A stretch of DNA of 64,000 bases. Origin: Acipenser ruthenus. Its lineage: Eukaryota. The notes beneath the pieces are model-generated. The model did not search any database and had not been told where the DNA came from. It saw only the letters and a program-made list of their open reading frames with translations. The DNA lies in assembly GCF_902713425.1 (NCBI RefSeq), contig NC_081212.1:9908261-9972260 (forward strand), written 5' to 3'. Positions 4,583 through 61,214 of the stretch are shown here, piece after piece. Position numbers and translations under genes: made by a program. Within the stretch, counting starts at the first letter, position 1. Each line of letters starts with the position of its first letter.

Positions 4583-4915
<333 letters not shown>

Positions 4916-5045
4916 ATCTCCTGGGCTGCCTGTGGTTATGGGTTCACCTTGCTGTCCTCCAGGACATGTGACCTGACCAAGGTGTGGGGGATGGGACTGA
5001 ACAAGGACTCCCAGCTGGGCTTCCAGCGCAGCCGCAGAGAACGCA
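4916..5045 (+). CDS. rcc1l: RCC1-like protein internal coding exon (ISWAACGYGFTLLSSRTCDLTKVWGMGLNKDSQLGFQRSRRER)
   Basis: AG acceptor at 4914-4915 directly after a 160-bp (TC)n; GTGAGT donor at 5046; RCC1-repeat motif; matches the human RCC1L segment ISSAACGYGFTLLSSKTADVTKVWGMGLNKDSQLGF as I recall it. Confidence 0.85.
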
Positions 5046-10200: not shown

Positions 10201-10211
10201 GTGTCTCTTAC

Positions 10212-11712
10212 TTTATTTAGTGGAGGTGGGCGTGTGTCTGTGTCACACTTTATATAGTGGAGGTGGGTGTGTGTCTGTGTGTCACACTTTATATAGTGGA
10301 GACGGGTGTGTGTCTGTGTCACACTTTATATAGTGGAGACGTGTGTAGTCAGTCTGTCACACTTTATATAGTGGAGACGGGTGTGTGTCTGTGTGTCACA
10401 CTTTATATAGTGGAGGTGGGTGTGTGTCTGTGTGTCACTTTATATAGTGGAGACGGGTGTGTGTCTGTGTGTCACACTTTATATAGTGGAGACGGGTGTG
10501 TGTCTGTGTGTCGCACTTTATATAGAGGAGACGGGTGTGTGTCTGTGTCACACTTTATATAGAGGAGACGGGTGTGTGTCTGTGTGTCGCACTTTATATA
10601 GAGGAGACGGGTGTGTGTCTGTGTCACACTTTATATAGTGGAGACGGGCGTGTGTCTGTGTGTCACACTTTATATAGTGGATACGGGTGTGTGTCTGTGT
10701 CACACTTTATATAGTGGAGACGTGTGTAGTCAGTCTGTCACACTTTATATAGTGGAGACGGGTGTGTGTCTGTGTGTCACACTTTATATAGTGGAGGTGG
10801 GTGTGTGTCTGTGTGTCACTTTATATAGTGGAGACGGGTGTGTGTCTGTGTGTCACACTTTATATAGAGGAGACGGGTGTGTGTCTGTGTCACACTTTAT
10901 ATAGAGGAGACGGGTGTGTGTCTGTGTCACACTTTATATAGAGGAGACGGGTGTGTGTCTGTGTCACACTTTATATAGTGGAGACGGGTGTGTGTCTGTG
11001 TCACACTTTATATAGTGGAGACGGGCGTGTGTCTGTGTCACACTTTATATAGTGGAGACGTGTGTAGTCAGTCTGTCACACTTTATATAGTGGAGACGGG
11101 TGTGTGTCTGTGTGTCACACTTTATATAGTGGAGGTGGGTGTGTGTCTGTGTGTCACTTTATATAGTGGAGACGGGTGTGTGTCTGTGTGTCACACTTTA
11201 TATAGTGGAGACGGGTGTGTGTCTGTGTGTCGCACTTTATATAGAGGAGACGGGTGTGTGTCTGTGTCACACTTTATATAGAGGAGACAGGTGTGTGTCT
11301 GTGTGTCGCACTTTATATAGAGGAGACGGGTGTGTGTCTGTGTCACACTTTATATAGTGGAGACGGGCGTGTGTCTGTGTGTCACACTTTATATAGTGGA
11401 TACGGGTGTGTGTCTGTGTCACACTTTATATAGTGGAGACGTGTGTAGTCAGTCTGTCACACTTTATATAGTGGAGACGGGTGTGTGTCTGTGTGTCACA
11501 CTTTATATAGTGGAGACGGGTGTGTGTCTGTGTGTCACACTTTATATAGTGGAGACGGGTGTGTGTCTGTGTCACTTTATATAGTGGAGACGGGTGTGTG
11601 TCTGTGTCACACTTTATATAGTGGAGACGGGTGTGTGTCTGTGTGTCACACTATATAGAGGAGACGGGTGTGTGTCTGTGTCACACTTTATATAGTGGAG
11701 ACAGGTGTGTGA
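10212..11712. repeat. 37-bp satellite (cactttatatagtggagacgggtgtgtgtctgtgtgt)n, about 40 copies, with a higher-order period of 720-730 bp
   Basis: direct reading; supplied ORF artefacts recur at 719-731-bp spacing (10257/10988, 10420/11139, 10611/11330). Confidence 0.9.
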
Positions 11713-30257: not shown

Positions 30258-30352
30258 TAACACTCACAAGAGCATGGTCGAATTTGAAGGTGCTGATGTA
30301 GTAGGCAGGAATGTCAGCAGCAGCCAGGGATTCAGATATCTGAGCCACGATC
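30258..30352 (-). CDS. castor2: CASTOR/GATS-like protein coding exon (DECGIVAQISESLAAADIPAYYISTFKFDHAL)
   Basis: minus-strand acceptor CTCTCTCTCAG at 30353-30363, which is also the first unit of the 8.6-kb tandem array; donor GTGAGT at 30257-30252; matches human DECGIVAQIAGPLAAADISAYYISTFNFDHAL. Confidence 0.88.
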
Positions 30353-33300
30353 CCACACTCATCTGAGAGAGAGACAGAGAGGCAGACAATCACACATGAT
30401 CCCACACTCATCTGAGAGGCAGACAATCACACACTATCCCACACTCATCTGAGAGAGAGACAGAGAGGTAGACAATCACACACGATCCCACACTCATCTG
30501 AGAGAGAGACAGAGAGGCAGACAATCACACATGATCCCACACTCATCTGAGAGGCAGACAATCACACACTATCCCACACTCATCTGACAGGCAGACAATC
30601 ACACACGATCCCACACTCATCTGAGAGAGAGACAGAGAGGTAGACAATCACACACGATCCCACACTCATCTGAGAGAGAGACAGAGAGGCAGACAATCAC
30701 ACATGATCCCACACTCATCTGAGAGGCAGACAATCACACACTATCCCACACTCATCTGACAGGCAGACAATCACACACGATCCCACACTCATCTGAGAGA
30801 CAGAGGTAGACAATCACACATGATCCCACACTCATCTGAGAGAGAGACAGAGAGGTAGACAATCACACACGATCCCACACTCATCTGAGAGACAGAGAGG
30901 TAGACAATCACACACGATCCCACGCTCATCTGAGAGAGAGACAGAGAGGTAGACAATCACACACGATCCCACACTCATCTGAGAGAGAGACAGACAATCA
31001 CACACGATCCCACACTCATCTGAGAGAGAGACAGAGAGGTAGACAATCACACACGATCCCACACTCATCTGAGAGAGAGACAGAGAGGTAGACAATCACA
31101 CACGATCCCACACTCATCTGAGAGAGAGACAGAGAGGTAGACAATCACACACGATCCCACACTCATCTGAGAGAGAGACAGAGAGGCAGACAATCACACA
31201 CGATCCCACACTCATCTGAGAGACAGACAATCACACACGATCCCACACTCATCTGAGAGAGACAGAGGCAGACAATCACACACGATCCCACACTCATCTG
31301 AGAGGTAGACAATCACACACGATCACACACTCATCTGAGAGAGAGACAGAGAGGTAGACAATCACACATGATCCCACACTCATCTGAGAGAGAGACAGAC
31401 AATCACACTCGATCCCACACTCATCTGAGAGAGAGACAGAGAGGTAGAGAATCACACACAATCCCACACTCATCTGAGAGAGACAGACAATCACACACGA
31501 TCCCACTCATCTGAGAGAGAGACAGAGAGGTAGACAATCACACACGATCCCACACTCATCTGAGAGACAGAGGTAGACAATCACACACGATCCCACACTC
31601 ATCAGAGAGAGACAGAGAGGTAGACAATCACACACGATCCCACACTCATCTGAGAGAGAGACAGACAATCACACACGATCCCACACTCATCTGAGAGAGA
31701 GACAGAGAGGTAGACAATCACACACGATCCCACACTCATCTGAGAGAGAGACAGAGAGGTAGACAATCACACACGATCCCACACTCATCTGAGAGAGACA
31801 GACAATCACACACGATCCCACACTCATCTGAGAGAGAGACAGACAGACAATCACACACGATCCCACACTCATCTGAGAGAGACAGACAATCACACACGAT
31901 CCCACTCATCTGAGAGAGAGACAGAGAGGCAGACAATCACACACGATCCCACACTCATCTGAGAGGTAGACAATCACACACGATCCCACACTCATCTGAG
32001 AGAGAGACAGACAATCACACACGATCCCACACTCATCTGAGAGAGAGACAGAGAGGCAGACAATCACACACGATCCCACACTCATCTGAGAGAGAGACAA
32101 TCACACACGATCCCACACTCATCTGAGAGAGAGACAGACAATCACACACGATCCCACACTCATCTGAGAGAGAGACAGAGAGGTAGACAATCACACATGA
32201 TCCCACACTCATCTGAGAGAGACAGACAATCACACACGATCCCACACTCATCTGAGAGGTAGACAATCACACACGATCCCACACTCATCTGAGAGAGAGA
32301 CAATCACACACGATCCCACACTCATCTGAGAGAGAGACAGAGAGGCAGACAATCACACACGATCCTACACTCATCTGAGAGAGAGACAGAGAGGTAGACA
32401 ATCACACACGATCCCACACTCATCTGAGAGAGAGGCAGACAATCACACACGATCCTACACTCATCTGAGAGAGACAGAGAGGCAGACAATCACACACGAT
32501 CCTACACTCATCTGAGAGATAGACAGACAATCACACTCGATCCCACACTCATCTGAGAGAGAGACAGAGAGGTAGACAATCACACACGATCCCACACTCA
32601 TCTGAGAGAGAGAGACAGACAATCACACACGATCCCACACTCATCTGAGAGAGAGACAGAGAGGTAGACAATCACACACGATCCCACACTCATCTGAGAG
32701 AGAGACAGAGAGGTAGACAATCACACAGGATCCCACACTCAACTGAGAGAGAGACAGACAATCACACACGATCCCACACTCATCTGAGAGAGAGACAGAG
32801 AGGTAGACAATCACACACGATCCCACACTCATCTGAGAGAGAGACAGACAATCACACTCGATCCCACACTCATCTGAGAGAGAGAGAGAGAGGTAGACAA
32901 TCACACACGATCCCACACTCATCTGAGAGAGACAGACAATCACACACGATCCCACTCATCTGAGAGAGAGACAGACAATCACACACGATCCCACACTCAT
33001 CTGAGAGTTAGACAATCACACACGATCCCACACTCATCTGAGAGAGAGACAATCACACACGATCCCACACTCATCTGAGAGACAGACAATCACACGATCC
33101 CACACTCATCTGAGAGAGAGACAGACAGACAGACAATCACACACGATCCCACACTCATCTGAGAGAGAGACAGAGAGGTAGACAATCACACACGATCCCA
33201 CACTCATCTGAGAGAGAGACAGAGAGGCAGACAATCACACATGATCCCACACTCATCTGAGAGGCAGACAATCACACACTATCCCACACTCATCTGACAG

Positions 33301-36300
33301 GCAGACAATCACACACGATCCCACACTCATCTGAGAGACAGAGGTAGACAATCACACATGATCCCACACTCATCTGAGAGAGAGACAGAGAGGTAGACAA
33401 TCACACACGATCCCACACTCATCTGAGAGACAGAGAGGTAGACAATCACACACGATCCCACACTCATCTGAGAGGTAGACAATCACACACGATCCCACAC
33501 TCATCTGAGAGAGAGACAATCACACACGATCCCACACTCATCTGAGAGACAGACAATCACACGATCCCACACTCATCTGAGAGAGAGACAGACAGACAGA
33601 CAATCACACACGATCCCACACTCATCTGAGAGGTAGACAATCACACACGATCCCACACTCATCTGAGAGAGAGACAGAGAGGCAGACAATCACACACGAT
33701 CCCACACTCATCTGAGAGGTAGACAATCACACACGATCCCACACTCATCTGAGAGAGAGACAGACAATCACACACGATCCCACACTCATCTGAGAGAGAG
33801 ACAGAGAGGCAGAGAATCACACACGATCCCACACTCATCTGAGAGAGAGACAGACAATCACACACGATCCCACACTCATCTGAGAGAGAGACAGACAATC
33901 ACACACGATCCCACACTCATCTGAGAGAGAGACAGAGAGGCAGACAATCACACACGATCCTACACTCATCTGAGAGAGACAGAGAGGCAGACAATCACAC
34001 ACGATCCCACACTCATCTGAGAGGTAGACAATCACACACGATCCCACACTCATCTGAGAGAGAGACAGAGAGGTAGACAATCACACACGATCCCACACTC
34101 ATCTGAGAGAGAGACAGACAGACAGACAATCACACACGATCCTACACTCATCTGAGAGAGAGACAGACAATCACACTCGATCCCACACTCATCTGAGAGA
34201 AAGACAGAGAGGTAGAGAATCACACACGATCCCACACTCATCTGAGAGAGAGACAGAGAGGTAGACAATCACACACGATCCCACACTCATCTGAGAGAGA
34301 GACAGACAGACAATCACACACGATCCCACACTCATCTGAGAGAGAGACAGAGGTAGACAATCACACACGATCCCACACTCATCTGAGAGAGACAGACAAT
34401 CACACACGATCCCACTCATCTGAGAGAGAGACAGTGAGGCAGACAATCACACACGATCCCACACTCATCTGAGAGGTAGACAATCACACACGATCCCACA
34501 CTCATCTGAGAGAGAGACAGACAATCACACACGATCCCACACTCATCTGAGAGAGAGACAGAGAGGCAGACAATCACACACGATCCCACACTCATCTGAG
34601 AGAGAGACAGACAATCACACACGATCCCACACTCATCTGAGAGAGAGACAGACAATCACACACGATCCCACACTCATCTGAGAGAGAGACAGAGAGGCAG
34701 ACAATCACACACGATCCTACACTCATCTGAGAGAGACAGAGAGGCAGACAATCCCACACGATCCCACACTCATCTGAGAGAGAGACAGACAATCACACTC
34801 GATCCCACACTCATTGAGAGAAAGACAGAGAGGTAGAGAATCACACACGATCCCACACTCATCTGAGAGAGAGACAGACAATCACACACGATCTCACACT
34901 CATCTGAGAGAGAGACAGAGAGGTAGACAATCACACACGATCCCACACTCATCTGAGAGAGAGACAGACAATCACACACGATCCCACACTCATCTGAGAG
35001 AGAGACAGACAATCACACTCGATCCCACACTCATCTGAGAGAAAGACAGAGAGGTAGAGAATCACACATGATCCCACACTCATCTGAGAGAGAGACAGAC
35101 AATCACACACGATCCCACACTCATCTGAGAGAAAGACAGAGAGGTAGAGAATCACACACGATCCCACACTCATCTGAGAGAGAGACAGACAATCACACAC
35201 GATCCCACACTCATTGAGAGAAAGACAGAGAGACAGACAATCACACACGATCCCACACTCATCTGAGAGAGAGACAGAGAGGCAGACAATCACACACGAT
35301 CCTACACTCATCTGAGAGAGACAGAGAGGCAGACAATCACACACGATCCCACACTCATCTGAGAGGTAGACAATCACACACGATCCCACACTCATCTGAG
35401 AGAGAGACAGAGAGGTAGACAATCACACACGATCCCACACTCATCTGAGAGAGAGACAGACAGACAGACAATCACACACGATCCTACACTCATCTGAGAG
35501 AGAGACAGACAATCACACTCGATCCCACACTCATCTGAGAGAAAGACAGAGAGGTAGAGAATCACACACGATCCCACACTCATCTGAGAGAGAGACAGAG
35601 AGGTAGACAATCACACACGATCCCACACTCATCTGAGAGAGAGACAGAGGTAGACAATCACACACGATCCCACACTCATCTGAGAGAGACAGACAATCAC
35701 ACACGATCCCACTCATCTGAGAGAGAGACAGAGAGGCAGACAATCACACACGATCCCACACTCATCTGAGAGGTAGACAATCACACACGATCCCACACTC
35801 ATCTGAGAGAGAGACAGACAATCACACACGATCCCACACTCATCTGAGAGAGAGACAGAGAGGCAGACAATCACACACGATCCCACACTCATCTGAGAGA
35901 GAGACAATCACACACGATCCCACACTCATCTGAGAGAGAGACAGACAATCACACACGATCCCACACTCATCTGAGAGAGAGACAGAGAGGCAGACAATCA
36001 CACACGATCCCACACTCATCTGAGAGAGAGACAGAGGTAGACAATCACACACGATCCCACACTCATCTGAGAGAGACAGACAATCACACACGATCCCACT
36101 CATCTGAGAGAGAGACAGAGAGGCAGACAATCACACACGATCCCACACTCATCTGAGAGAGAGACAGAGGTAGACAATCACACACGATCCCACACTCATC
36201 TGAGAGAGACAGACAATCACACACGATCCCACACTCATTTGAGAGGTAGACAATCACACACGATCCCACACTCATCTGAGAGAGAGACAGACAATCACAC

Positions 36301-39003
36301 TCGATCCCACACTCATTGAGAGAAAGACAGAGAGGTAGAGAATCACACACGATCCCACACTCATCTGAGAGAGAGACAGACATTCACACACGATCTCACA
36401 CTCATCTGAGAGAGAGACAGAGAGGTAGACAATCACACACGATCCCACACTCATCTGAGAGAGAGACAGACAATCACACACGATCCCACACTCATCTGAG
36501 AGAGAGACAGACAATCACACTCGATCCCACACTCATCTGAGAGAAAGACAGAGAGGTAGAGAATCACACACGATCCCACACTCATCTGAGAGAGAGACAG
36601 ACAATCACACACGATCCCACACTCATCTGAGAGAAAGACAGAGAGGTAGAGAATCACACACGATCCCACACTCATCTGAGAGAGAGACAGACAATCACAC
36701 ACGATCCCACACTCATTGAGAGAAAGACAGAGAGACAGACAATCACACACGATCCCACACTCATCTGAGAGAGAGACAGAGAGGCAGACAATCACACACG
36801 ATCCTACACTCATCTGAGAGAGACAGAGAGGCAGACAATCACACACGATCCCACACTCATCTGAGAGGTAGACAATCACACACGATCCCACACTCATCTG
36901 AGAGAGAGACAGAGAGGTAGACAATCACACACGATCCCACACTCATCTGAGAGAGAGACAGACAGACAGACAATCACACACGATCCTACACTCATCTGAG
37001 AGAGAGACAGACAATCACACTCGATCCCACACTCATCTGAGAGAAAGACAGAGAGGTAGAGAATCACACACGATCCCACACTCATCTGAGAGAGAGACAG
37101 AGAGGTAGACAATCACACACGATCCCACACTCATCTGAGAGAGAGACAGACAGACAATCACACACGATCCCACACTCATCTGAGAGAGAGACAGAGGTAG
37201 ACAATCACACACGATCCCACACTCATCTGAGAGAGACAGACAATCACACACGATCCCACTCATCTGAGAGAGAGACAGAGAGGCAGACAATCACACACGA
37301 TCCCACACTCATCTGAGAGAGAGGCAGACAATCACACACGATCCCACACTCATCTGAGAGAGAGACAGAGAGGTAGACAATCACACACGATCCCACACTC
37401 ATCTGAGAGAGAGACAGACAGACAATCACACACGATCCCACACTCATCTGAGAGAGACAGACAATCACACACGATCCCACTCATCTGAGAGAGAGACAGA
37501 GAGGCAGACAATCACACACGATCCCACACTCATCTGAGAGGTAGACAATCACACACGATCCCACACTCATCTGAGAGAGAGACAGACAATCACACACGAT
37601 CCCACACTCATCTGAGAGAGAGACAGAGAGGCAGACAATCACACACGATCCCACACTCATCTGAGAGAGAGACAATCACACACGATCCCACACTCATCTG
37701 AGAGAGAGACAGACAATCACACACGATCCCACACTCATCTGAGAGAGAGACAGAGAGGCAGACAATCACACACGATCCTACACTCATCTGAGAGAGACAG
37801 AGAGGCAGACAATCCCACACGATCCCACACTCATTTGAGAGGTAGACAATCACACACGATCCCACACTCATCTGAGAGAGAGACAGACAATCACACTCGA
37901 TCCCACACTCATTGAGAGAAAGACAGAGAGGTAGAGAATCACACACGATCCCACACTCATCTGAGAGAGAGACAGACAATCACACACGATCTCACACTCA
38001 TCTGAGAGAGAGACAGAGAGGTAGACAATCACACACGATCCCACACTCATCTGAGAGAGAGACAGACAATCACACACGATCCCACACTCATCTGAGAGAG
38101 AGACAGATAATCACACTCGATCCCACACTCATCTGAGAGAAAGACAGAGAGGTAGAGAATCACACACGATCCCACACTCATCTGAGAGAGAGACAGACAA
38201 TCACACACGATCCCACACTCATCTGAGAGAAAGACAGAGAGGTAGAGAATCACACACGATCCCACACTCATCTGAGAGAGAGACAGACAATCACACACGA
38301 TCCCACACTCATTGAGAGAAAGACAGAGAGGTAGAGAATCACACACGATCCCACACTCATCTGAGAGAGAGACAGACAATCACACACGATCTCACACTCA
38401 TCTGAGAGAGAGACAGAGAGGTAGACAATCACACACGATCCCACACTCATCTGAGAGAGAGACAGAGAGGTAGACAATCACACACGATCCCATACTCATC
38501 TGAGAGAGAGACAGACAATCACACACGATCCCACACTCATCTGAGAGAGAGACAGACAATCACACTCGATCCCACACTCATCTGAGAGAAAGACAGAGAG
38601 GTAGAGAATCACACACCATCCCACACTCATCTGAGAGAGAGACAGACAATCACACACGATCCCACACTCATCTGAGAGAGAGACAGAGAGGTAGACAATC
38701 ACACACGATCCCACACTCATCTGAGAGAGAGACAGACAATCACACACGATCCCACACTCATCTGAGAGAGAGACAGAGAGGTAGACAATCAAACACGATC
38801 CCACACTCATCTGAGAGAGAGACAGAGAGGTAGACAATCACACACGATCCCACACTCATCTGAGAGAGACAGACAATCACACACGATCCCACACTCATCT
38901 GAGAGAGAGACAGAGAGGTAGACAATCACACACGATCCCACACTCATCTGAGAGAGAGACAGACAATCACACACGATCCCACACTCATCTGAGAGACAAT
39001 CAC
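30353..39003 (-). repeat. 8.6-kb tandem array (about 170 units of 40-57 bp) whose unit is a copy of the castor 3' splice site (polypyrimidine + CAG) plus the first 17 nt of the exon (ATGAGTGTGGGATCGTG = DECGIV); higher-order period about 1.5 kb
   Basis: minus-strand unit atgagtgtgggatcgtg|tgtgattgtctacctctctgtctctctctcag; every supplied minus-strand ORF in the region reads …SDECGIVCDCLPLCLSLR; identical ORFs recur at 1502-bp spacing (34949/36451; 34814/36316/37912 on +). Confidence 0.9.
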
Positions 39004-39629
39004 ACACTGCTTTTTCCACAAAACAAAACAAAACAGCCTTTCAATGAAGAATTAGGAGTGTAGCGATACAATAGTCAGGATACAATACGTATTATACAGG
39101 CTACAATATAATATCACAGTACATATGATGGTCCTCATGGGGTAGTTTTACTGTGATGCATAATAAGATTAAATGATCATTTCCTGACTCATTTGTTAAT
39201 GAAATGAGTTAGGGAGAGTATGTATTCAACCATAACATAGTCTTATTCTTCATTGAAGAAGCATTTGGTGAACTACAGTAAGCTATGTTGTGCTTCTGGT
39301 ATTTTTTGGTCCAGCCTATTCCGATAGAATATATTATGGAAAGAAAGGCTCGTGCATCATCAATATAAGAGGAATCTTGGCCCATGATTGGACTGATATA
39401 TGGCATGAGATTTGAAGATTTTTGGGTTGCTGGTCTCTCGTACTGTTTGGATAATTTAAAACCTGAATGCAGTGGGCAGGCTCATGAGAAAAAAACATAC
39501 GCTGTTACAAAATGACAGCGAGTGTAGCTCACAAAATAATCCCATAACTCCTCTCTGTTGTGCACTTCCATTTTTATATAGGTCTCACGTGTCCACTATT
39601 GAAAGAAAGAAACACTACTGTAATTTTAA

Positions 39630-39850
39630 AATATGATATCTGGTACTACAAACCTCTGTTTGCAAGCCATGCTTTCAGTTAATGTTGCACTTGCTTGGTC
39701 ATTCTAGAGGGTGAAATTCTACCCTTCAATGGCTTCTTTCCTATCAATAAACAATCAGCTGCTTCCCCATTGACTGGTTTGCTTTCAGCCAATAACATGG
39801 CCCAGAAGACACTGCTGAGGTGACCCAGGAAGTACATTATATTTCACAAT
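39630..39850 (+). repeat. dispersed repeat, unknown family (second copy at 54230-54440)
   Basis: two copies share about 75% identity over 200 bp. Confidence 0.4.
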
Positions 39851-40005
39851 GTTTTAAAATGAAAAGAAATGTTAACATTTGTTTCTTTAAAAACATTTGA
39901 CACCTAAATATGGAGTTGATGTTACTATTTTGTTAGCACCAATTCCATTAAGCATTGGAAATTTGTGGGCAAGTTTATAGACATACACAGCCTCGCTCTC
40001 ACTCA

Positions 40006-40088
40006 CCGAAGCCCAGCGGCTGCCCTCCGATCCTCACCATCTTCCAGAGCTCTCCGGAGGCGCTGGTGAAGAGCACGTTAAGGGGGAA
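40006..40088 (-). CDS. castor2: CASTOR/GATS-like protein coding exon (RFPLNVLFTSASGELWKMVRIGGQPLGF)
   Basis: minus-strand acceptor CCCTCAG at 40089-40095, donor GTGAGT at 40005-40000; matches human KFPSDLLLTSSSGELWRMVRIGGQPLGF. Confidence 0.88.
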
Positions 40089-40484: not shown

Positions 40485-41098
40485 TGTGACGAAGTGCCCG
40501 CCCCTGTGTGTATTTTGTGTGTTATGTGTTGTATGTTGCGTGTGTTAATGTTGGTGTATAGTCATTGGTACACGGGATATAAACGGGTCTGTGTTTCACG
40601 TGTATTTAAAAATGTAGATTTGTATTTAGGCACGAGGAGGGCACAAATCACTTCACGTGCTGGTTAAATGTAATATATGAGCACGGGGTTTGCACAGAAT
40701 TAATTCACGTGCTGGGATTCAAGTGAATAATTAATTAGTAATTGAATCCCAGCACAACAGTATATATAGATGCACATTTCTTTCACTCAGGGTTGGGTGT
40801 TCGGTGAGTGGAGAACGGGAGAGAGAGAAGGAGAAAATAAAACAAAGTAAAGTAATTAGAAGTGTTTTCACTCACCGTGTTTGTTCGTCTGTCTGTTTAA
40901 GTGTAGTACGTTTTGTTTGTCTTTTTATTTTGGCGTATAGTGCCGTGTCCCGTGTTTTGTGTTAAAACCTTTTATTTTCTGTGCTGTTTATTAAATGCTG
41001 AGCGAAACCATTCGCTCAGCTCCACCAAACCACACCTCTCTGTCTGTTTATTTCCTGCTTCTGGTCTGACGCCACCGACTCCGGCCGTCTTTGTGACA
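40485..41098 (+). mobile_element. solo LTR (614 bp, TG…CA) of the LTR family at 56766-60419, with 5-bp TSD AGCAT (40480-40484 and 41099-41103); inserted into a CR1-like 3' fragment
   Basis: about 85% identical to the reverse complement of the LTRs at 56766-57377 and 59809-60419; flanking CR1 fragment is contiguous across the insertion (…cagtgattcAGCAT / AGCATcaacaacttaactag…). Confidence 0.8.
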
Positions 41099-54200: not shown

Positions 54201-54602
54201 ATCAAACAAGTCTGTTTATTTTTAAATATCTGGTACTATTCTAGGTTATGAAATCTGTTTGCAGCCATGCTTTTAGACCGTCTTTCACTTCCTGGGTCAC
54301 CTGAGGGTGAAATTGTCTCCGTCCCTTCACCGGATTCTTCCTGTCACTAGCCAACCAGCTGCTCTCCCTATTGACTGACATGCCTTCAGCCAGTAACATG
54401 ACCCAGAGGACACTGCTGAGGTGAAATGACCAAAAAGCAGTAGCAGACTTCCTGGTAGGCAGGGCAAGAAACATGAGAACGTTCTTTAGCCTGTGTGTTT
54501 CAAAAGGAATGTTTGAAACCCATGTAGCTAATGGAAGTGCAAAACGGTAAGATTGATGGAATCACCTTGTTAGCCCTAGAGCTCAGATGAAAGCACCTTA
54601 AC

Positions 54603-55312
54603 ACAGTATTACAAGATGAAGCACACTGTACTACAAGATGAAGCACACTGTATTACAAGATGAAGCGCACTGTATTACAAGATGAAGCACAGTATTACAA
54701 GATGAAGCACACAGTATTACAAGATGAAGCACACTGTATTACAAGATGAAGCACACTGTATTACAAGATGAAGCGCACTGTATTACAAGATGAAGCGCAC
54801 AGTATTACAAGATGAAGTACACTGTATTACAAGATGAAGTACACTGTATTACAAGATGAAGCACACAGTATTACAAGATGAAGCGCACTGTATTACAAGA
54901 TGAAGCGCACAGTATTACAAGATGAAGCGCACAGTATTACAAGATGAAGCGCACAGTATTACAAGATGAAGCGCACAGTATTACAAGATGAAGCGCACAG
55001 TATTACAAGATGAAGCGCACAGTATTACAAGATGAAGCACACTGTATTACAAGATGAAGCACACTGTATTACAAGATGAAGCACACTGTACTACAAGATG
55101 AAGCACACTGTATTACAAGATGAAGCACACTGTACTACAAGATGAAGCACACTGTATTACAAGATGAAGCACACTGTATTACAAGATGAAGCGCACTGTA
55201 TTACAAGATGAAACACACTGTATTACAAGATGAAGCACACAGTATTACAAGATGAAGCACACTATTACAAGATGAAGCACACTGTATTACAAGATGAAGC
55301 ACACTGTATTTG
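54603..55312. repeat. 21-bp minisatellite (gtattacaagatgaagc[a/g]cac[a/t])n, about 34 copies
   Basis: direct reading. Confidence 0.9.
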
Positions 55313-56765: not shown

Positions 56766-59700
56766 TGTCACAAAGACGGCCAGAGTGGGTGGCGTCAGAC
56801 CAGAAAAGGAATACACAGACAGACGGTGGTGATGATGAGCTGAGTGCAATGGCTGCACTCAGCGTTTATTAACAAATAAAAAGGTTTAACAGTACAAAAA
56901 CAGGACACGGCACTGGTAGCCAAAAGAAACATATAAACAAAACGGACTAAACACTAAACAGACGGTGCAGGACAGACAGACGAACACGGCGAGTACAAAC
57001 AACTATTATATTTACGATCTTTTCGCTTTTTAACTCTCCTTCTCCACACCCGTTCTCCACTCCCGAACACCTAACCCTGACTGACTAAAAATGTGCCTAT
57101 TTATACTGTTGTGCTGGGATTCAATTACTAATTAATTATTCACTTGAATCCCAGCACGTGAATTAATTCTGTGCAACCCCGTGCTCACATAATAGATTTA
57201 ACCAGCACGTGAAGTGATTTGTGCTCTCCTCGTGCCTAAATACAAATCTACACTTTTTAAATACACGTGAATCACAGACCTGTTTATATCCCGTGTACCA
57301 ATCTATACACCAACATTTACACACGCAACACGCAACACATAACACAAATGCACACAGGGGCGGGGCGCTTTGCCACATATACCCCCCCTTGTGCGCAGCA
57401 CACATGGCCTCAACGGCCACCTCCCCCCTTAAAAATCCAGCAGTCCAGGACAAAGTCTCGGGCTGGGAAGGGAGGCTTCAGTGGGCCCATGGCTGGCCAT
57501 GCTGTCAGCACCCCTGCCGGTAGTGGCACGGCTGACAGCCTGTTGGTCCCATCCTGCAGCGAAAAAGCTGCGGGGGCAGGTGGTCCCCCGACCTCCCCCT
57601 TCTTCGTAGCCGGCAGCTCCCTCCTGTGGGGCTCCGGCCACAAGACCTCCTGCAGCGAAACTGCTGCTGGGGAAAGTGGTCTCCAGACCTCGTCCCCCTT
57701 CTTTGTAGCCGGTAGCTCCCTTTGGTGGGGCTCCGACCACAGTACTGCCGGCAGCGAAGAAGCTGCAGTGGGAGCAGGTCTCCGGACCTCCCCCACGATC
57801 TCCGGCAGCGAAACTGCTGCAGTGGGAGCAGGTCTCCGGACCTCCCCCACGATCTCCGGCAGCGAAACTGCTGCAGTGGGAGCAGGTCTCCGGACCTCCC
57901 CCACGATCTCCGGCAGCGAAACTGCTGCAGTGGGAGCAGGTCTCCTGACCTCCCCCACGATCTCCGGCAGCGAAACTGCTGCAGTGGGAGCAGGTCTCCA
58001 GACCTCCTCCCCCTTCTTCGTGGCCGACAGCTCCCCTTTCTGGGGCTCCGGCCACCGTACTCCCCGTGGTGGAGGTATGGGAAGCAGAGACAGCTCCTGC
58101 TGTTCTGCTTCTGGCAGTGGCAGAGGCAGAGGCAGCTCCTCTGCTCCTGGAAGTGGCAGAGGCAGCTCCTGCTCCTCTGCTCCTGGAAGTGGCAGAGGCA
58201 GCTCCTGCTCCTTTGCTCCTGCCGGTGTAGGTGGCGGAGGCAGAGGCAGCTCCGGCTGCTCTGCTCCTGCCGTTGTAGGTGGCGGAGGCAGAGGCAGCTC
58301 CTGCTCCTCTGCTCCTGGAAGTGGCAGAGGCAGCTCCGGCTGCTCTGCTCCTGTCGGTGAAGGTGGGAGCAGCGTGTAGTCTCCTGCCGATGGAGGTGGG
58401 AGCAGCGTGTAGTCTCCCCCTTTTTCAGGGGACTGGTGCTGCTCTGCCTCTCTTGCAGCGGACTGGTGCGGCTCTGCTTCTGAAGGGGAAACCAGCAGGC
58501 ATTCTTCCTCTGCTGGTTGTGCTGGGGAAACCAGCAGGCATTCTTCCTCTGCTGGTTGTGCTGGGGAAACCAGCAGGCATTCTTCCTCTGCTGGTTGTGC
58601 TGGGGAAACCAGCAGGCATTCTTCCTCTGCTGGTTGTGCTGGGGAAACCAGCAGGCATTCTTCCTCTGCTGGTTGGGCTGGGGAAACCAGCAGGCATTCT
58701 TCCTCTGCTGGTTGTGATGGGGAAACCAGCAGGCATTCTTGCTCTGCTGGTGAAGGTGGGAACAGCTGCCTCTCAGGCTTCGGATTCCCGCGGTCCCCCC
58801 GTCTGGGCGCTGGACGCTCGCGGTCCCCCCGTCTGGGCGCTGGACGCTCGCGGTCCCCCCGTCTGGGCGCTGGTTCCTCCTCTTCATACTGGGTGGGGCA
58901 TATGGCTAACGTGTGCCCATAAGCCCCACAGCCAGGGCATAACTCTGCTGCGAGGTTCTTTAAAAAAACCTCCCAGCCATCATCCTCGACCTCCTCCCTT
59001 TTGGGCTGTGGACGCCCCGACTCCTCCCTTTTGGGCTGTGGACACTCGGGTTCCCCCCACTCAGGCGTAGGACGTTCGGGTTCCTCCCACTCAGGCGTAG
59101 GACGCTCGGGCTCCTCCCACTCGGGCTGTGGACGCTCAGGCTCCTCCCACTCGGGCTGTGGACGCTCAGGCTCCTCCCACTCGGGCTGTGGACGCTCAGG
59201 CTCCTCCCACTCGGGCTGTGGACGCTCAGGCTCCTCCCACTCGGGCTGTGGACGCTCAGGCTCCTCCCACTCGGGCTGTGGACGCTCAGGCTCCTCCCAC
59301 TCGGGCTGTGGACGCTCAGGCTCCTCCCACTCAGGTACTGGAGAGGGCAGCGACTGCTCCTCTCCCTCTTGCTCACTGGAAGGCATCCCTCCCATGTCTG
59401 CAGCTAGGTAACCCAGCACCACAATGGTGAGGTCACGAACGGATGCCGGGTTGTGCTGTTGCTCCCAGTCCTCCCATCATTTCCCATCTCGCATCTGCAG
59501 TGCGTGAATAACCATGGGGAGGTCACTGGCGAAGTTCCCCTCGGGGTGCACCAGCCAGTCCCATATTTCCCGGGACGGTGGGGAACCCGGTGGCAGTGGG
59601 GGTAGAGGGGTGGCTACTGCCCCGTTGTGGCTGTCCTCCTCCCAGCAGGATGAGGGCTGCAGCTGTTGTTGTTGCTGCTGCTGCTTCTGCTGCTTCCTGC

Positions 59701-60419
59701 AGCTCTTTCTTCCCATCCTCGCTTTACTATTTTTTTTTTTTTTTTTTCACAAAACCCCCTCTCCTGGTCTGACGCTTGGAGGCGCTATTATCCCACGATG
59801 ACACCACGTGTCACAAAGACGGCCAGAGTGGGTGGCGTCAGACCAGAAAAGGAATACACAGACAGACGGTGGTGATGATGAGCTGAGTGCAATGGCTGCA
59901 CTCAGCGTTTATTAACAAATAAAAAGGTTTAACAGTACAAAAACAGGACACGGCACTGGTAGCCAAAAGAAACATATAAACAAAACGGACTAAACACTAA
60001 ACAGACGGTGCAGGACAGACAGACGAACATGGTGAGTACAAACAACTATTATATTTACGATCTTTTCGCTTTTTAACTCTCCTTCTCCACACCCGTTCTC
60101 CACTCCCGAACACCTAACCCTGACTGACTAAAAATGTGCCTATTTATACTGTTGTGCTGGGATTCAATTACTAATTAATTATTCACTTGAATCCCAGCAC
60201 GTGAATTAATTCTGTGCAACCCCGTGCTCACATATTACATTTAACCAGCACGTGAAGTGATTTGTGCTCTCCTCGTGCCTAAATACAAATCTACACTTTT
60301 TAAATACACGTGAAACACAGACCCGTTTATATCCCGTGTACCAATCTATACACCAACATTTACACACGCAACACGCAACACATAACACAAATGCACACAG
60401 GGGCGGGGCGCTTTGCCAC
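56766..60419 (-). mobile_element. young non-autonomous LTR retrotransposon (3654 bp): 611/612-bp LTRs at 56766-57377 and 59809-60419, TG…CA termini, 5-bp TSD ATGCT, PBS-like tggtgtcatcgtgggat next to the 5' LTR, polypurine tract aaggggggg next to the 3' LTR, and a single gag-like ORF
   Basis: the two LTR copies are about 99% identical; TSD ATGCT at 56761-56765 and 60420-60424; internal ORF has a CCHC knuckle CPGCGAYGHTLAIC; no pol. Confidence 0.85.
57410..59422 (-). CDS. gag-like ORF (670 aa) of the LTR element: one CX2CX4HX4C zinc knuckle and extensive internal tandem peptide repeats (PEWEEPERPQ x10, PAQPAEEECLLVS x7, RRPAPTAAVSLPEIVGEV x4)
   Basis: longest ORF in the window; lies between PBS and PPT of the LTR element; overlapping + strand ORFs are alternate-frame artefacts. 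Confidence 0.6.
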   Translation of the reverse strand: MVLGYLAADMGGMPSSEQEGEEQSLPSPVPEWEEPERPQPEWEEPERPQPEWEEPERPQPEWEEPERPQPEWEEPERPQPEWEEPERPQPEWEEPERPQPEWEEPERPTPEWEEPERPTPEWGEPECPQPKREESGRPQPKREEVEDDGWEVFLKNLAAELCPGCGAYGHTLAICPTQYEEEEPAPRRGDRERPAPRRGDRERPAPRRGDRGNPKPERQLFPPSPAEQECLLVSPSQPAEEECLLVSPAQPAEEECLLVSPAQPAEEECLLVSPAQPAEEECLLVSPAQPAEEECLLVSPAQPAEEECLLVSPSEAEPHQSAAREAEQHQSPEKGGDYTLLPPPSAGDYTLLPPSPTGAEQPELPLPLPGAEEQELPLPPPPTTAGAEQPELPLPPPPTPAGAKEQELPLPLPGAEEQELPLPLPGAEELPLPLPLPEAEQQELSLLPIPPPRGVRWPEPQKGELSATKKGEEVWRPAPTAAVSLPEIVGEVRRPAPTAAVSLPEIVGEVRRPAPTAAVSLPEIVGEVRRPAPTAAVSLPEIVGEVRRPAPTAASSLPAVLWSEPHQRELPATKKGDEVWRPLSPAAVSLQEVLWPEPHRRELPATKKGEVGGPPAPAAFSLQDGTNRLSAVPLPAGVLTAWPAMGPLKPPFPARDFVLDCWIFKGGGGR

Positions 60420-61214
60420 AATGCTATATTGGGAAACCATACTGTACAGCAACTTGCATTTAGACCTTCTAATCTTCTGTTTTTATTTCCCAGAGTGGTT
60501 TAAGTGTGGTAACAATCAAACTGATATTATCAGAACCTCATTAACTCCCATTATATTCTGTCCAGGACATTTTAATGCGGTGATAAGAAGCAGAGTGACA
60601 TTAAGTGATATTAAGAATGGTCAAGATACAAACTGTCAGACAGGCCCTCCAATTTGAACCACAGCTACATACATCTCATTATTCATGGATTGTTTTTGGT
60701 CTGGTATTGCCATAGAAGAAGGATTCTGTAAAACATTTATTTGCAAACCAAACTTCCTGCTTGATAAATGTACCGGCACCTGTTTCACAACACCAGGGTT
60801 TCAGTAGCCATGGTGACAAATAAAGGTCACCTGACAACCAGACTGTAATGGCAATGATTCACTCTGCACACACAAACACACAGAAAACTGCCTGGCAGTA
60901 AATTTGACCTGGTGGTTACAACTGAGGGACTGAGGGAGACAGTGTGGCCTACTGTTTTCAACAGAGGGGTTGGGAGGGAGGAAATGCGGCCTAGAGGTTA
61001 GATTTTAGTGACTGAGAAGAAAGCAGTGTTGTAATTCAAGCTGAGGGACTAAAATGTTTAAAGCGACCCGTAAAATGCATTAATCCGTTAAAATGAAAAT
61101 ACAGGTTTGCTAGAATGAGTTTCTTTCAAAACTGCACACTTGAGACCTATGTAGCTAATGGAAGTGCATGACAGGGAAGACTTTTGAAATTATTTTGGTA
61201 GGTACACTTTAGGG

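Follow-up and report, generated by a model that had tools for sequence, protein, structure and literature searches.

A stretch of 64,000 nucleotides from the sturgeon Acipenser ruthenus (contig NC_081212.1, positions 9,908,261 to 9,972,260; the whole stretch is called the window below) carries on its minus strand exons 3 to 9 of a castor2-like gene, the seventh intron of which is largely taken up by a tandem array of short repeat units. The exons were located by tblastn, with a human CASTOR1 sequence and then the database protein P0001 as probes. The closest database proteins are those of sturgeon castor2, an arginine-sensor gene, and among the members of its protein cluster the castor2-like protein XP_033904877.1 of Acipenser ruthenus agrees with the exons of the window at every residue. 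Intron 7 is 9644 nt long (40006-30363), and about 90% of it is occupied by the array. An initial annotation of this DNA had described the array as a series of decoy splice acceptors with a higher-order repeat structure of 1.5 kb, comparable to that of centromeric satellites.

Parsing on the invariant motif CTCAT(C)TGAGAG, which anchors the acceptor and the exon start, divides the 8.6-kb array into 197 units, one of them authentic and 196 decoys, in 52 sequence variants, the two commonest of which, A and B, together account for 29% of the units. Tandem Repeats Finder (TRF) reports a single array at 30346-38996 with a period of 49 bp, 196.5 copies and 81% matches between units, and gives 90 bp as an alternative period; its span starts at 30346 because the initial 17 nt of exon 8 belong to the repeat. 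The conserved core of the unit occurs 180 times in the window, against an expectation of 0, on the plus strand only and always within 30388-38995, and the array region is strongly strand-asymmetric, with an AT skew of about +0.5. All 197 units lie head to tail in a single orientation, and their length of 35-49 bp is within the 10-100 bp that define a minisatellite. Variant units are mixed, multi-unit duplications are frequent (83 of the 197 units stand in exact repeated strings of at least five units), and the copy number differs between genomes when species and ohnologues are compared. The array is thus by definition a minisatellite, or variable number tandem repeat (VNTR).

Read on the gene strand, each unit consists of a polypyrimidine tract, CAG and ATGAGTGTGGGATCGTG, that is, of a 3' splice site together with the first 17 nt of exon 8, and the authentic acceptor is the final unit of the array. 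The CAG followed by the exon-8 start is retained in 187 of the 196 non-authentic units, so that the name "decoy acceptor" given in the initial annotation is accurate. The open reading frames (ORFs) within the array, which had been regarded as artefacts of the repeat, indeed match no Pfam family, and no Rfam family was found in the region from 28 to 41 kb; a coding or RNA-gene reading of the array was rejected on these grounds. A dispersed transposon was likewise rejected as the origin of the unit within the window, since none of the 180 core matches falls outside the array and the unit shares homology with the exon junction next to it.

Since whole-array autocorrelation is dominated by periods of 41, 49 and 90 bp, which mask any larger blocks, the best ungapped segment was computed at every lag. 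In addition, each unit variant was coded as a letter, and the resulting strings were compared along the array. A self-repeat family search with a minimum of 300 nt was uninformative, its families being swamped by similarity at the level of the unit. The off-diagonal at about 1.5 kb, on which the claim of a higher-order structure had been staked, is present: the top ungapped self-match lies at lag 1502 and spans 903 bp with about 3 mismatches (score 882), and the next-best diagonals are at lags 2844, 1596, 3098 and 1342. The longest exactly repeated string of units comprises 12, whereas the maximum in 1000 shuffles of the unit order was 5.

Unit coding and alignment resolve three block copies and a partial fourth (Table 1). 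The three copies are pairwise 99.3-99.8% identical in aligned columns (3-9 substitutions), far above the identity of neighbouring units, and this is the contrast that a comparison of identity between and within copies had been proposed to reveal. They are set apart by indels of 37-221 bp, which comprise whole units and keep in register with the unit boundaries. The proposed fixed period of 1502 bp is therefore the strongest diagonal but not a constant length, the copies being of 1342, 1502 and 1548 bp. Together they make up 51% of the array, its distal half; in the exon-proximal half, the 1.5-kb period was not found, and identity over the whole array is 0.41 at lag 1502 as compared with 0.60 at lag 49. 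The four unit variants listed in the initial annotation are real (types A/C, B, E and O), and the fixed order ascribed to them holds within 33916-38307 but not elsewhere in the array. Both 157-residue ORFs, at 34949-35422 and 36451-36924 on the minus strand, are identical as stated; the three 74-residue ORFs of the plus strand, described as the same, are near-identical, each later copy being one residue off the first, and are spaced by 1502 and then 1596 bp.

Sharing of variants among the three copies is mosaic: the variants N, IX and S of copy 3 are also those of copy 1, whereas its C, H and Z are shared with copy 2. Duplicated unit strings also occur off register, namely AKLPTA at lag 2538, FCEBCHB at lag 3807 and NFCEBCHB at lag 5575, seven units of the last recurring as well at 35675-35965. 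In the distal tail, the OSAB..GB module is duplicated locally, at lags of 400-449 bp.

Single-unit slippage would yield runs of identical neighbours and is thus not the main mode of growth here, because only 5 of the 196 adjacent pairs are identical, which is below the 5.9% expected for random pairs. Long units (at least 45 bp) and short units alternate 129 times, against an expected 97.9 ± 7.0 (z = 4.4), and this excess explains the 90-bp period of TRF. These counts, together with the three highly similar copies of 30-35 units, support growth of the array largely by duplication of multi-unit blocks, in steps of two to about 35 units, over single-unit slippage, in agreement with the initial proposal. 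Overall, the feature is most probably the young distal half of an old intronic minisatellite, a segmental block triplication within a VNTR and not a homogenised higher-order repeat of fixed period.

Table 1. Features of the castor2-like locus in the window, in gene order, followed by the corresponding loci of other species (positions in the window unless a contig is named)
Feature	Positions	Strand	Basis or remark
Exon 3, castor2-like	53733-53540	-	tblastn; boundaries read from sequence
Exon 4, castor2-like	46463-46331	-	tblastn; boundaries read from sequence
Exon 5, castor2-like	45436-45313	-	tblastn; boundaries read from sequence
Exon 6, castor2-like	42003-41893	-	tblastn; boundaries read from sequence
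Exon 7, castor2-like	40089-40007	-	donor GT 40006-40005; tblastn and sequence reading
Unique 5' part of intron 7	39004-40006	-	sequence reading
Minisatellite, 196 decoy units of 35-49 bp	30363-39003	-	TRF, own unit parse and core-motif count
Partial fourth copy and distal tail, OSAwBDxBAByAMABz	38308-39003		diagonal scan and unit coding
Block copy 3, 35 units, 1548 bp, IQEARDGANJFCuANFCEBCHBIXZDOSABvGBGB	36760-38307		unit coding and alignment
Block copy 2, 34 units, 1502 bp, IQEARDGAJFCEBCHBCJFCJMZDOtABDGBGBY	35258-36759		unit coding and alignment
Block copy 1, 30 units, 1342 bp, IQEARDGANJFrEBCBBIXDOSABDsBGBY	33916-35257		unit coding and alignment
Longest near-perfect ungapped repeat	34746-35648 (partner 36248-37150)		diagonal scan, lag 1502
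String NFCEBCHB, 8 units	31823-32158 (exact recurrence 37398-37733, lag 5575)		diagonal scan and unit strings
Exon-proximal, ancestral array end, K-L-(P)-A/T module x3, period 172 bp	30358-30936		diagonal scan (lag 172) and unit coding
Exon 8, castor2-like, 95 nt, encodes (D)ECGIVAQISESLAAADIPAYYISTFKFDHAL	30362-30268	-	authentic acceptor AG 30364-30363; tblastn and sequence reading
Exon 9 coding part, castor2-like	29301-29236	-	tblastn; boundaries read from sequence
Huso huso, orthologue (L012)			about 15 units at intron-7/exon-8 junction
Huso huso, other ohnologue (L009)			about 10 units at intron-7/exon-8 junction
A. oxyrinchus (L001)			about 15 units at intron-7/exon-8 junction
A. oxyrinchus, second locus (L013)			about 6 units at intron-7/exon-8 junction
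A. sinensis (L010)	VSKV01002166.1, 66889-69845		72.5 nearly identical copies; 39-bp deletion-variant unit
Paddlefish Polyodon spathula (L011)	CM030290.1, 57180-58214		at least 11 nearly identical 43-bp units, then 500-N gap
Albula, teleost (L015)			no array; intron 7 about 390 bp
Callorhinchus, chimaera (L016)			no array; intron 7 about 180 bp

The same junction carries an array in the other sturgeons and in the paddlefish, whereas none was found in Albula or Callorhinchus, both of which have a single acceptor, cag/ATGAGTG, at the matching intron position; the duplication of the junction therefore dates to the stem of the Acipenseriformes. One of the two Huso huso loci is taken as the orthologue because its unique intron 7 is 98.6% identical to that of the window (39004-40006), with 12 substitutions in 1005 columns, and the first units of the window array (K, L, P-like and T-like) follow the same order as in this orthologue. 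Identity of the unique intron to the window is 96.9% in the other Huso huso copy and about 93% in both copies of A. oxyrinchus. The equal distance of the two A. oxyrinchus copies from the window hints that the ohnologues may have become resolved after that lineage had split off.

Substitutions between the orthologous unique intron sequences amount to about 1.2%, whereas 0.2-0.7% of aligned sites vary between block copies, which places the triplication after the separation from the Huso huso orthologue. The array had been suggested as a handle for dating the expansion, and this holds in relative terms; an absolute date is ruled out by gene conversion and by the array's own uncertain mutation rate. 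The roughly 13-fold expansion and the block triplication appear to be lineage-specific and fairly recent, and the expansion would also postdate the split from the Huso huso orthologue, provided that the Huso assembly is not collapsed. In A. sinensis the array expanded independently, in what looks like growth by single units. The authentic acceptor of this locus is TAG and not CAG, and the gene model on deposit (P0078) continues from exon 7 into the intron, without the splice to exon 8. The RefSeq protein of the paddlefish, XP_041092465.1 (291 residues), ends in ...DECGIVCDCLPVSLR / ...GFDECGIVCDCLPVSLR, the translation of a decoy unit; this model is truncated because the scaffold gap lies inside the array and exons 8 and 9 are missing after it. 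In practical terms, the array breaks or distorts assemblies and gene models, as the truncated paddlefish and mis-spliced A. sinensis models illustrate.

The array was thus founded by tandem duplication of the castor2 intron-7/exon-8 junction in the common ancestor of sturgeons and paddlefish and has remained at about 6-15 units in most lineages, whereas in the lineage of the window the array of the castor2-like ohnologue grew to 196 decoy units after the split from the Huso huso orthologue. The last steps could have been out-of-register exchange, between sister chromatids or homologues, or template switching during replication, by which a block of about 30-35 units would have been copied twice, the outcome being three copies in tandem plus a partial fourth. 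The unequal lengths and the mosaic variants would then have arisen through gains and losses of 1-5 units and through exchange among the copies. Out-of-register exchange between copies followed by small gains and losses fits the mosaic better than does one clean order of duplication.

Several points weigh against a block triplication as described here. The mosaic of shared variants is inconsistent with any single simple duplication order, and we infer the exchange mechanism from its end product alone. The structure is that of one assembled haplotype, analysed without reads, so that block structure and copy number are partly open to assembly error; the assemblies of paddlefish and A. sinensis visibly struggle at this locus, and the small arrays of the other species could have been collapsed by the assembler. 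In addition, the RNA contigs considered below derive from a related copy and not from the gene in the window. Tandem arrays are error-prone in assembly, and long reads mis-tiled in a low-complexity array might produce false tandem copies of a 1.3-1.5-kb stretch, an origin that the broken paddlefish scaffold and the suspiciously homogeneous A. sinensis copy would seem to favor. However, the three copies are non-identical, with their own substitutions and distinct indels of whole units in unit register, an array of 8.6 kb fits within a single long read, and collinearity of the flanks extends to four other sturgeon loci; it is therefore unlikely that the blocks are an assembly artefact. The recurrence of similar runs of units by chance, without block duplication, might be suggested by the abundance of the variants A and B, but the permutation test and the 903-bp match with its few mismatches leave this a negligible probability.

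A genuine higher-order repeat in the centromeric sense would be a defined multimer, homogenised by continuing unequal exchange and repeated with a characteristic period of 1.5 kb. The identity between copies, which far exceeds that between neighbouring units, and the conserved order of diverged units are what such a repeat would display. However, the array offers only three copies of unequal length and a partial fourth, covering half of its extent with mosaic variants, instead of a constant multimer length over many copies; its low overall identity at lag 1502, the additional off-register duplications, and the location of its 35-49-bp units in a euchromatic intron of a conserved protein-coding gene all point elsewhere. 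The comparison with centromeric satellites was thus overstated, and we regard a higher-order repeat of this kind as very unlikely.

The junction of exon 7 with exon 8, GGGCTTCG/ATGAGTGTGGGATCGTGGCTCAG, is found in seven RNA-derived contigs (L002-L008) that encode P0001; these contain the authentic junction only, and no use of a decoy is seen in them. Use of any decoy is predicted to lead to a stop codon 6-136 codons past exon 7, with a median of 17. Exon definition probably causes the decoy acceptors to be ignored, as the last acceptor alone has both the right distance upstream of the exon-8 donor and an open reading frame. Recursive splicing was rejected as a role for the units: each CAG is followed by ATGAGT and not by a GT donor, and the units are not composite 3' and 5' splice sites.

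In a different explanation of the array, its roughly 187 decoy 3' splice sites would be maintained by function and their number tuned in blocks, regulating castor2-like splicing or dosage through unproductive splicing and nonsense-mediated decay (NMD) or through the sequestering of polypyrimidine-binding proteins. The persistence of the array at this junction in all of the Acipenseriform loci studied, the retention of CAG in nearly all decoys and the premature stop predicted from every one of them are in line with such a role, as is the human ABCA7 donor-site VNTR, a mirror image of this array, which changes splicing with its length (De Roeck et al., 2018; PMC5954066). Against it stand a 30-fold variation in copy number among closely related loci, in which a constraint on size is not apparent, the authentic junction as the only one in the RNA contigs of the related copy, and the slow sequence evolution of sturgeons together with homogenisation, which alone can preserve units. 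On balance, a functional array is rather unlikely. The array might more specifically act as a length-tunable trap, in which each block gain would add 30-35 intact acceptors and divert more castor2-like pre-mRNA to NMD, offering a route by which one ohnologue of this arginine-sensor gene would be tuned in dosage or silenced following the genome duplication of sturgeons; this too is an unlikely scenario. Nevertheless, in our judgement the conserved and intact decoy-acceptor array is a more interesting object than its block structure. Paired ohnologues and several species provide a natural series in which a single, completely defined 3' splice site is repeated in tandem 6 to 197 times directly before the authentic one, and the locus could therefore become a test bed for how vertebrate spliceosomes choose the last of many identical acceptors.

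The window contains further repeats. A second large minisatellite at 10210-11711, outside the castor2-like gene, has a 37-bp unit (or a 76-bp dimer) in about 40 copies with 90% matches, and a perfect (CT)77 microsatellite at 4592-4746 directly adjoins a fourfold 54-bp tandem repeat at 4735-4956. Upstream of exon 3, in the preceding intron, lies a 22-bp tandem array of 32.5 copies (54601-55310), of which both Huso huso loci carry a shorter version at the corresponding position. The window has a single GC-rich stretch (GC 0.56-0.62), and in it, at 57552-59332, at least seven distinct GC-rich minisatellites with units of 30-99 bp are clustered. A copy of a dispersed repeat stands on either side of this cluster, an arrangement that points to an inserted element rather than to a promoter island. 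The dispersed repeat, of about 612 bp, is present at 40485-41098, 56766-57377 and 59809-60420, the first copy being opposite in orientation to the other two; each copy matches three places in the second Huso huso ohnologue at 81-96% identity, and the repeat is probably a short interspersed or terminal-repeat element.

Alpha-satellite arrays are centromeric and built from monomers of about 171 bp, and their copies, which number in the hundreds to thousands, share one fixed period. Their higher-order repeats resemble the sturgeon array in that diverged monomers keep a conserved order and copies of the multimer are far closer to each other than are neighbouring monomers; the sturgeon array differs in having three unequal copies, shorter units and an intronic site. 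Classical hypervariable minisatellites have reportedly been studied by Jeffreys and co-workers through the mapping of variant repeats. Likeness to these lies in the interspersed variants and in one conserved end, which in this case is the exon-proximal K-L-P module also present in Huso huso, while the rest turns over.

Length change in human VNTRs is documented to come mainly from the duplication of multi-unit blocks, among them "blocks of 45-50 repeat units" (Course et al., 2021; PMC8327921). The human intronic VNTRs of that study likewise have units of tens of base pairs, intronic arrays on the kilobase scale and many motif variants; they differ in taxon, gene and unit and were demonstrated across many alleles, whereas the sturgeon array is known from one haplotype and a comparison across species. 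Block duplication inside VNTRs is thus already documented and is how large minisatellites ordinarily expand, and as a structural note on a VNTR the present finding is ordinary. Its value is descriptive: it shows block-wise growth of this VNTR, confined to a single lineage. A published account of the sturgeon castor2 array was not found, which speaks for the searched literature only.

The closest parallel in splicing is the VNTR in intron 18 of ABCA7, whose 25-bp unit starts with the donor GT of exon 18 and which comprises 12-427 units over 0.3-10.7 kb; use of the unit donors causes a frameshift and a premature stop, and splicing was measured to depend on the length of the array (De Roeck et al., 2018; PMC5954066). 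In both cases the array abuts an exon, every unit holds a copy of the splice site, and the use of a unit site shifts the frame and brings a premature stop, as is predicted for the sturgeon array; the sizes are also similar, the sturgeon arrays ranging from 6 to 197 units. However, the ABCA7 site is a donor (5') site with a measured effect on splicing, whereas the sturgeon unit, known from sequence, joins an acceptor (3') site to 17 nt of exon in 35-49 bp. The sturgeon array is the acceptor-side counterpart of the ABCA7 array.

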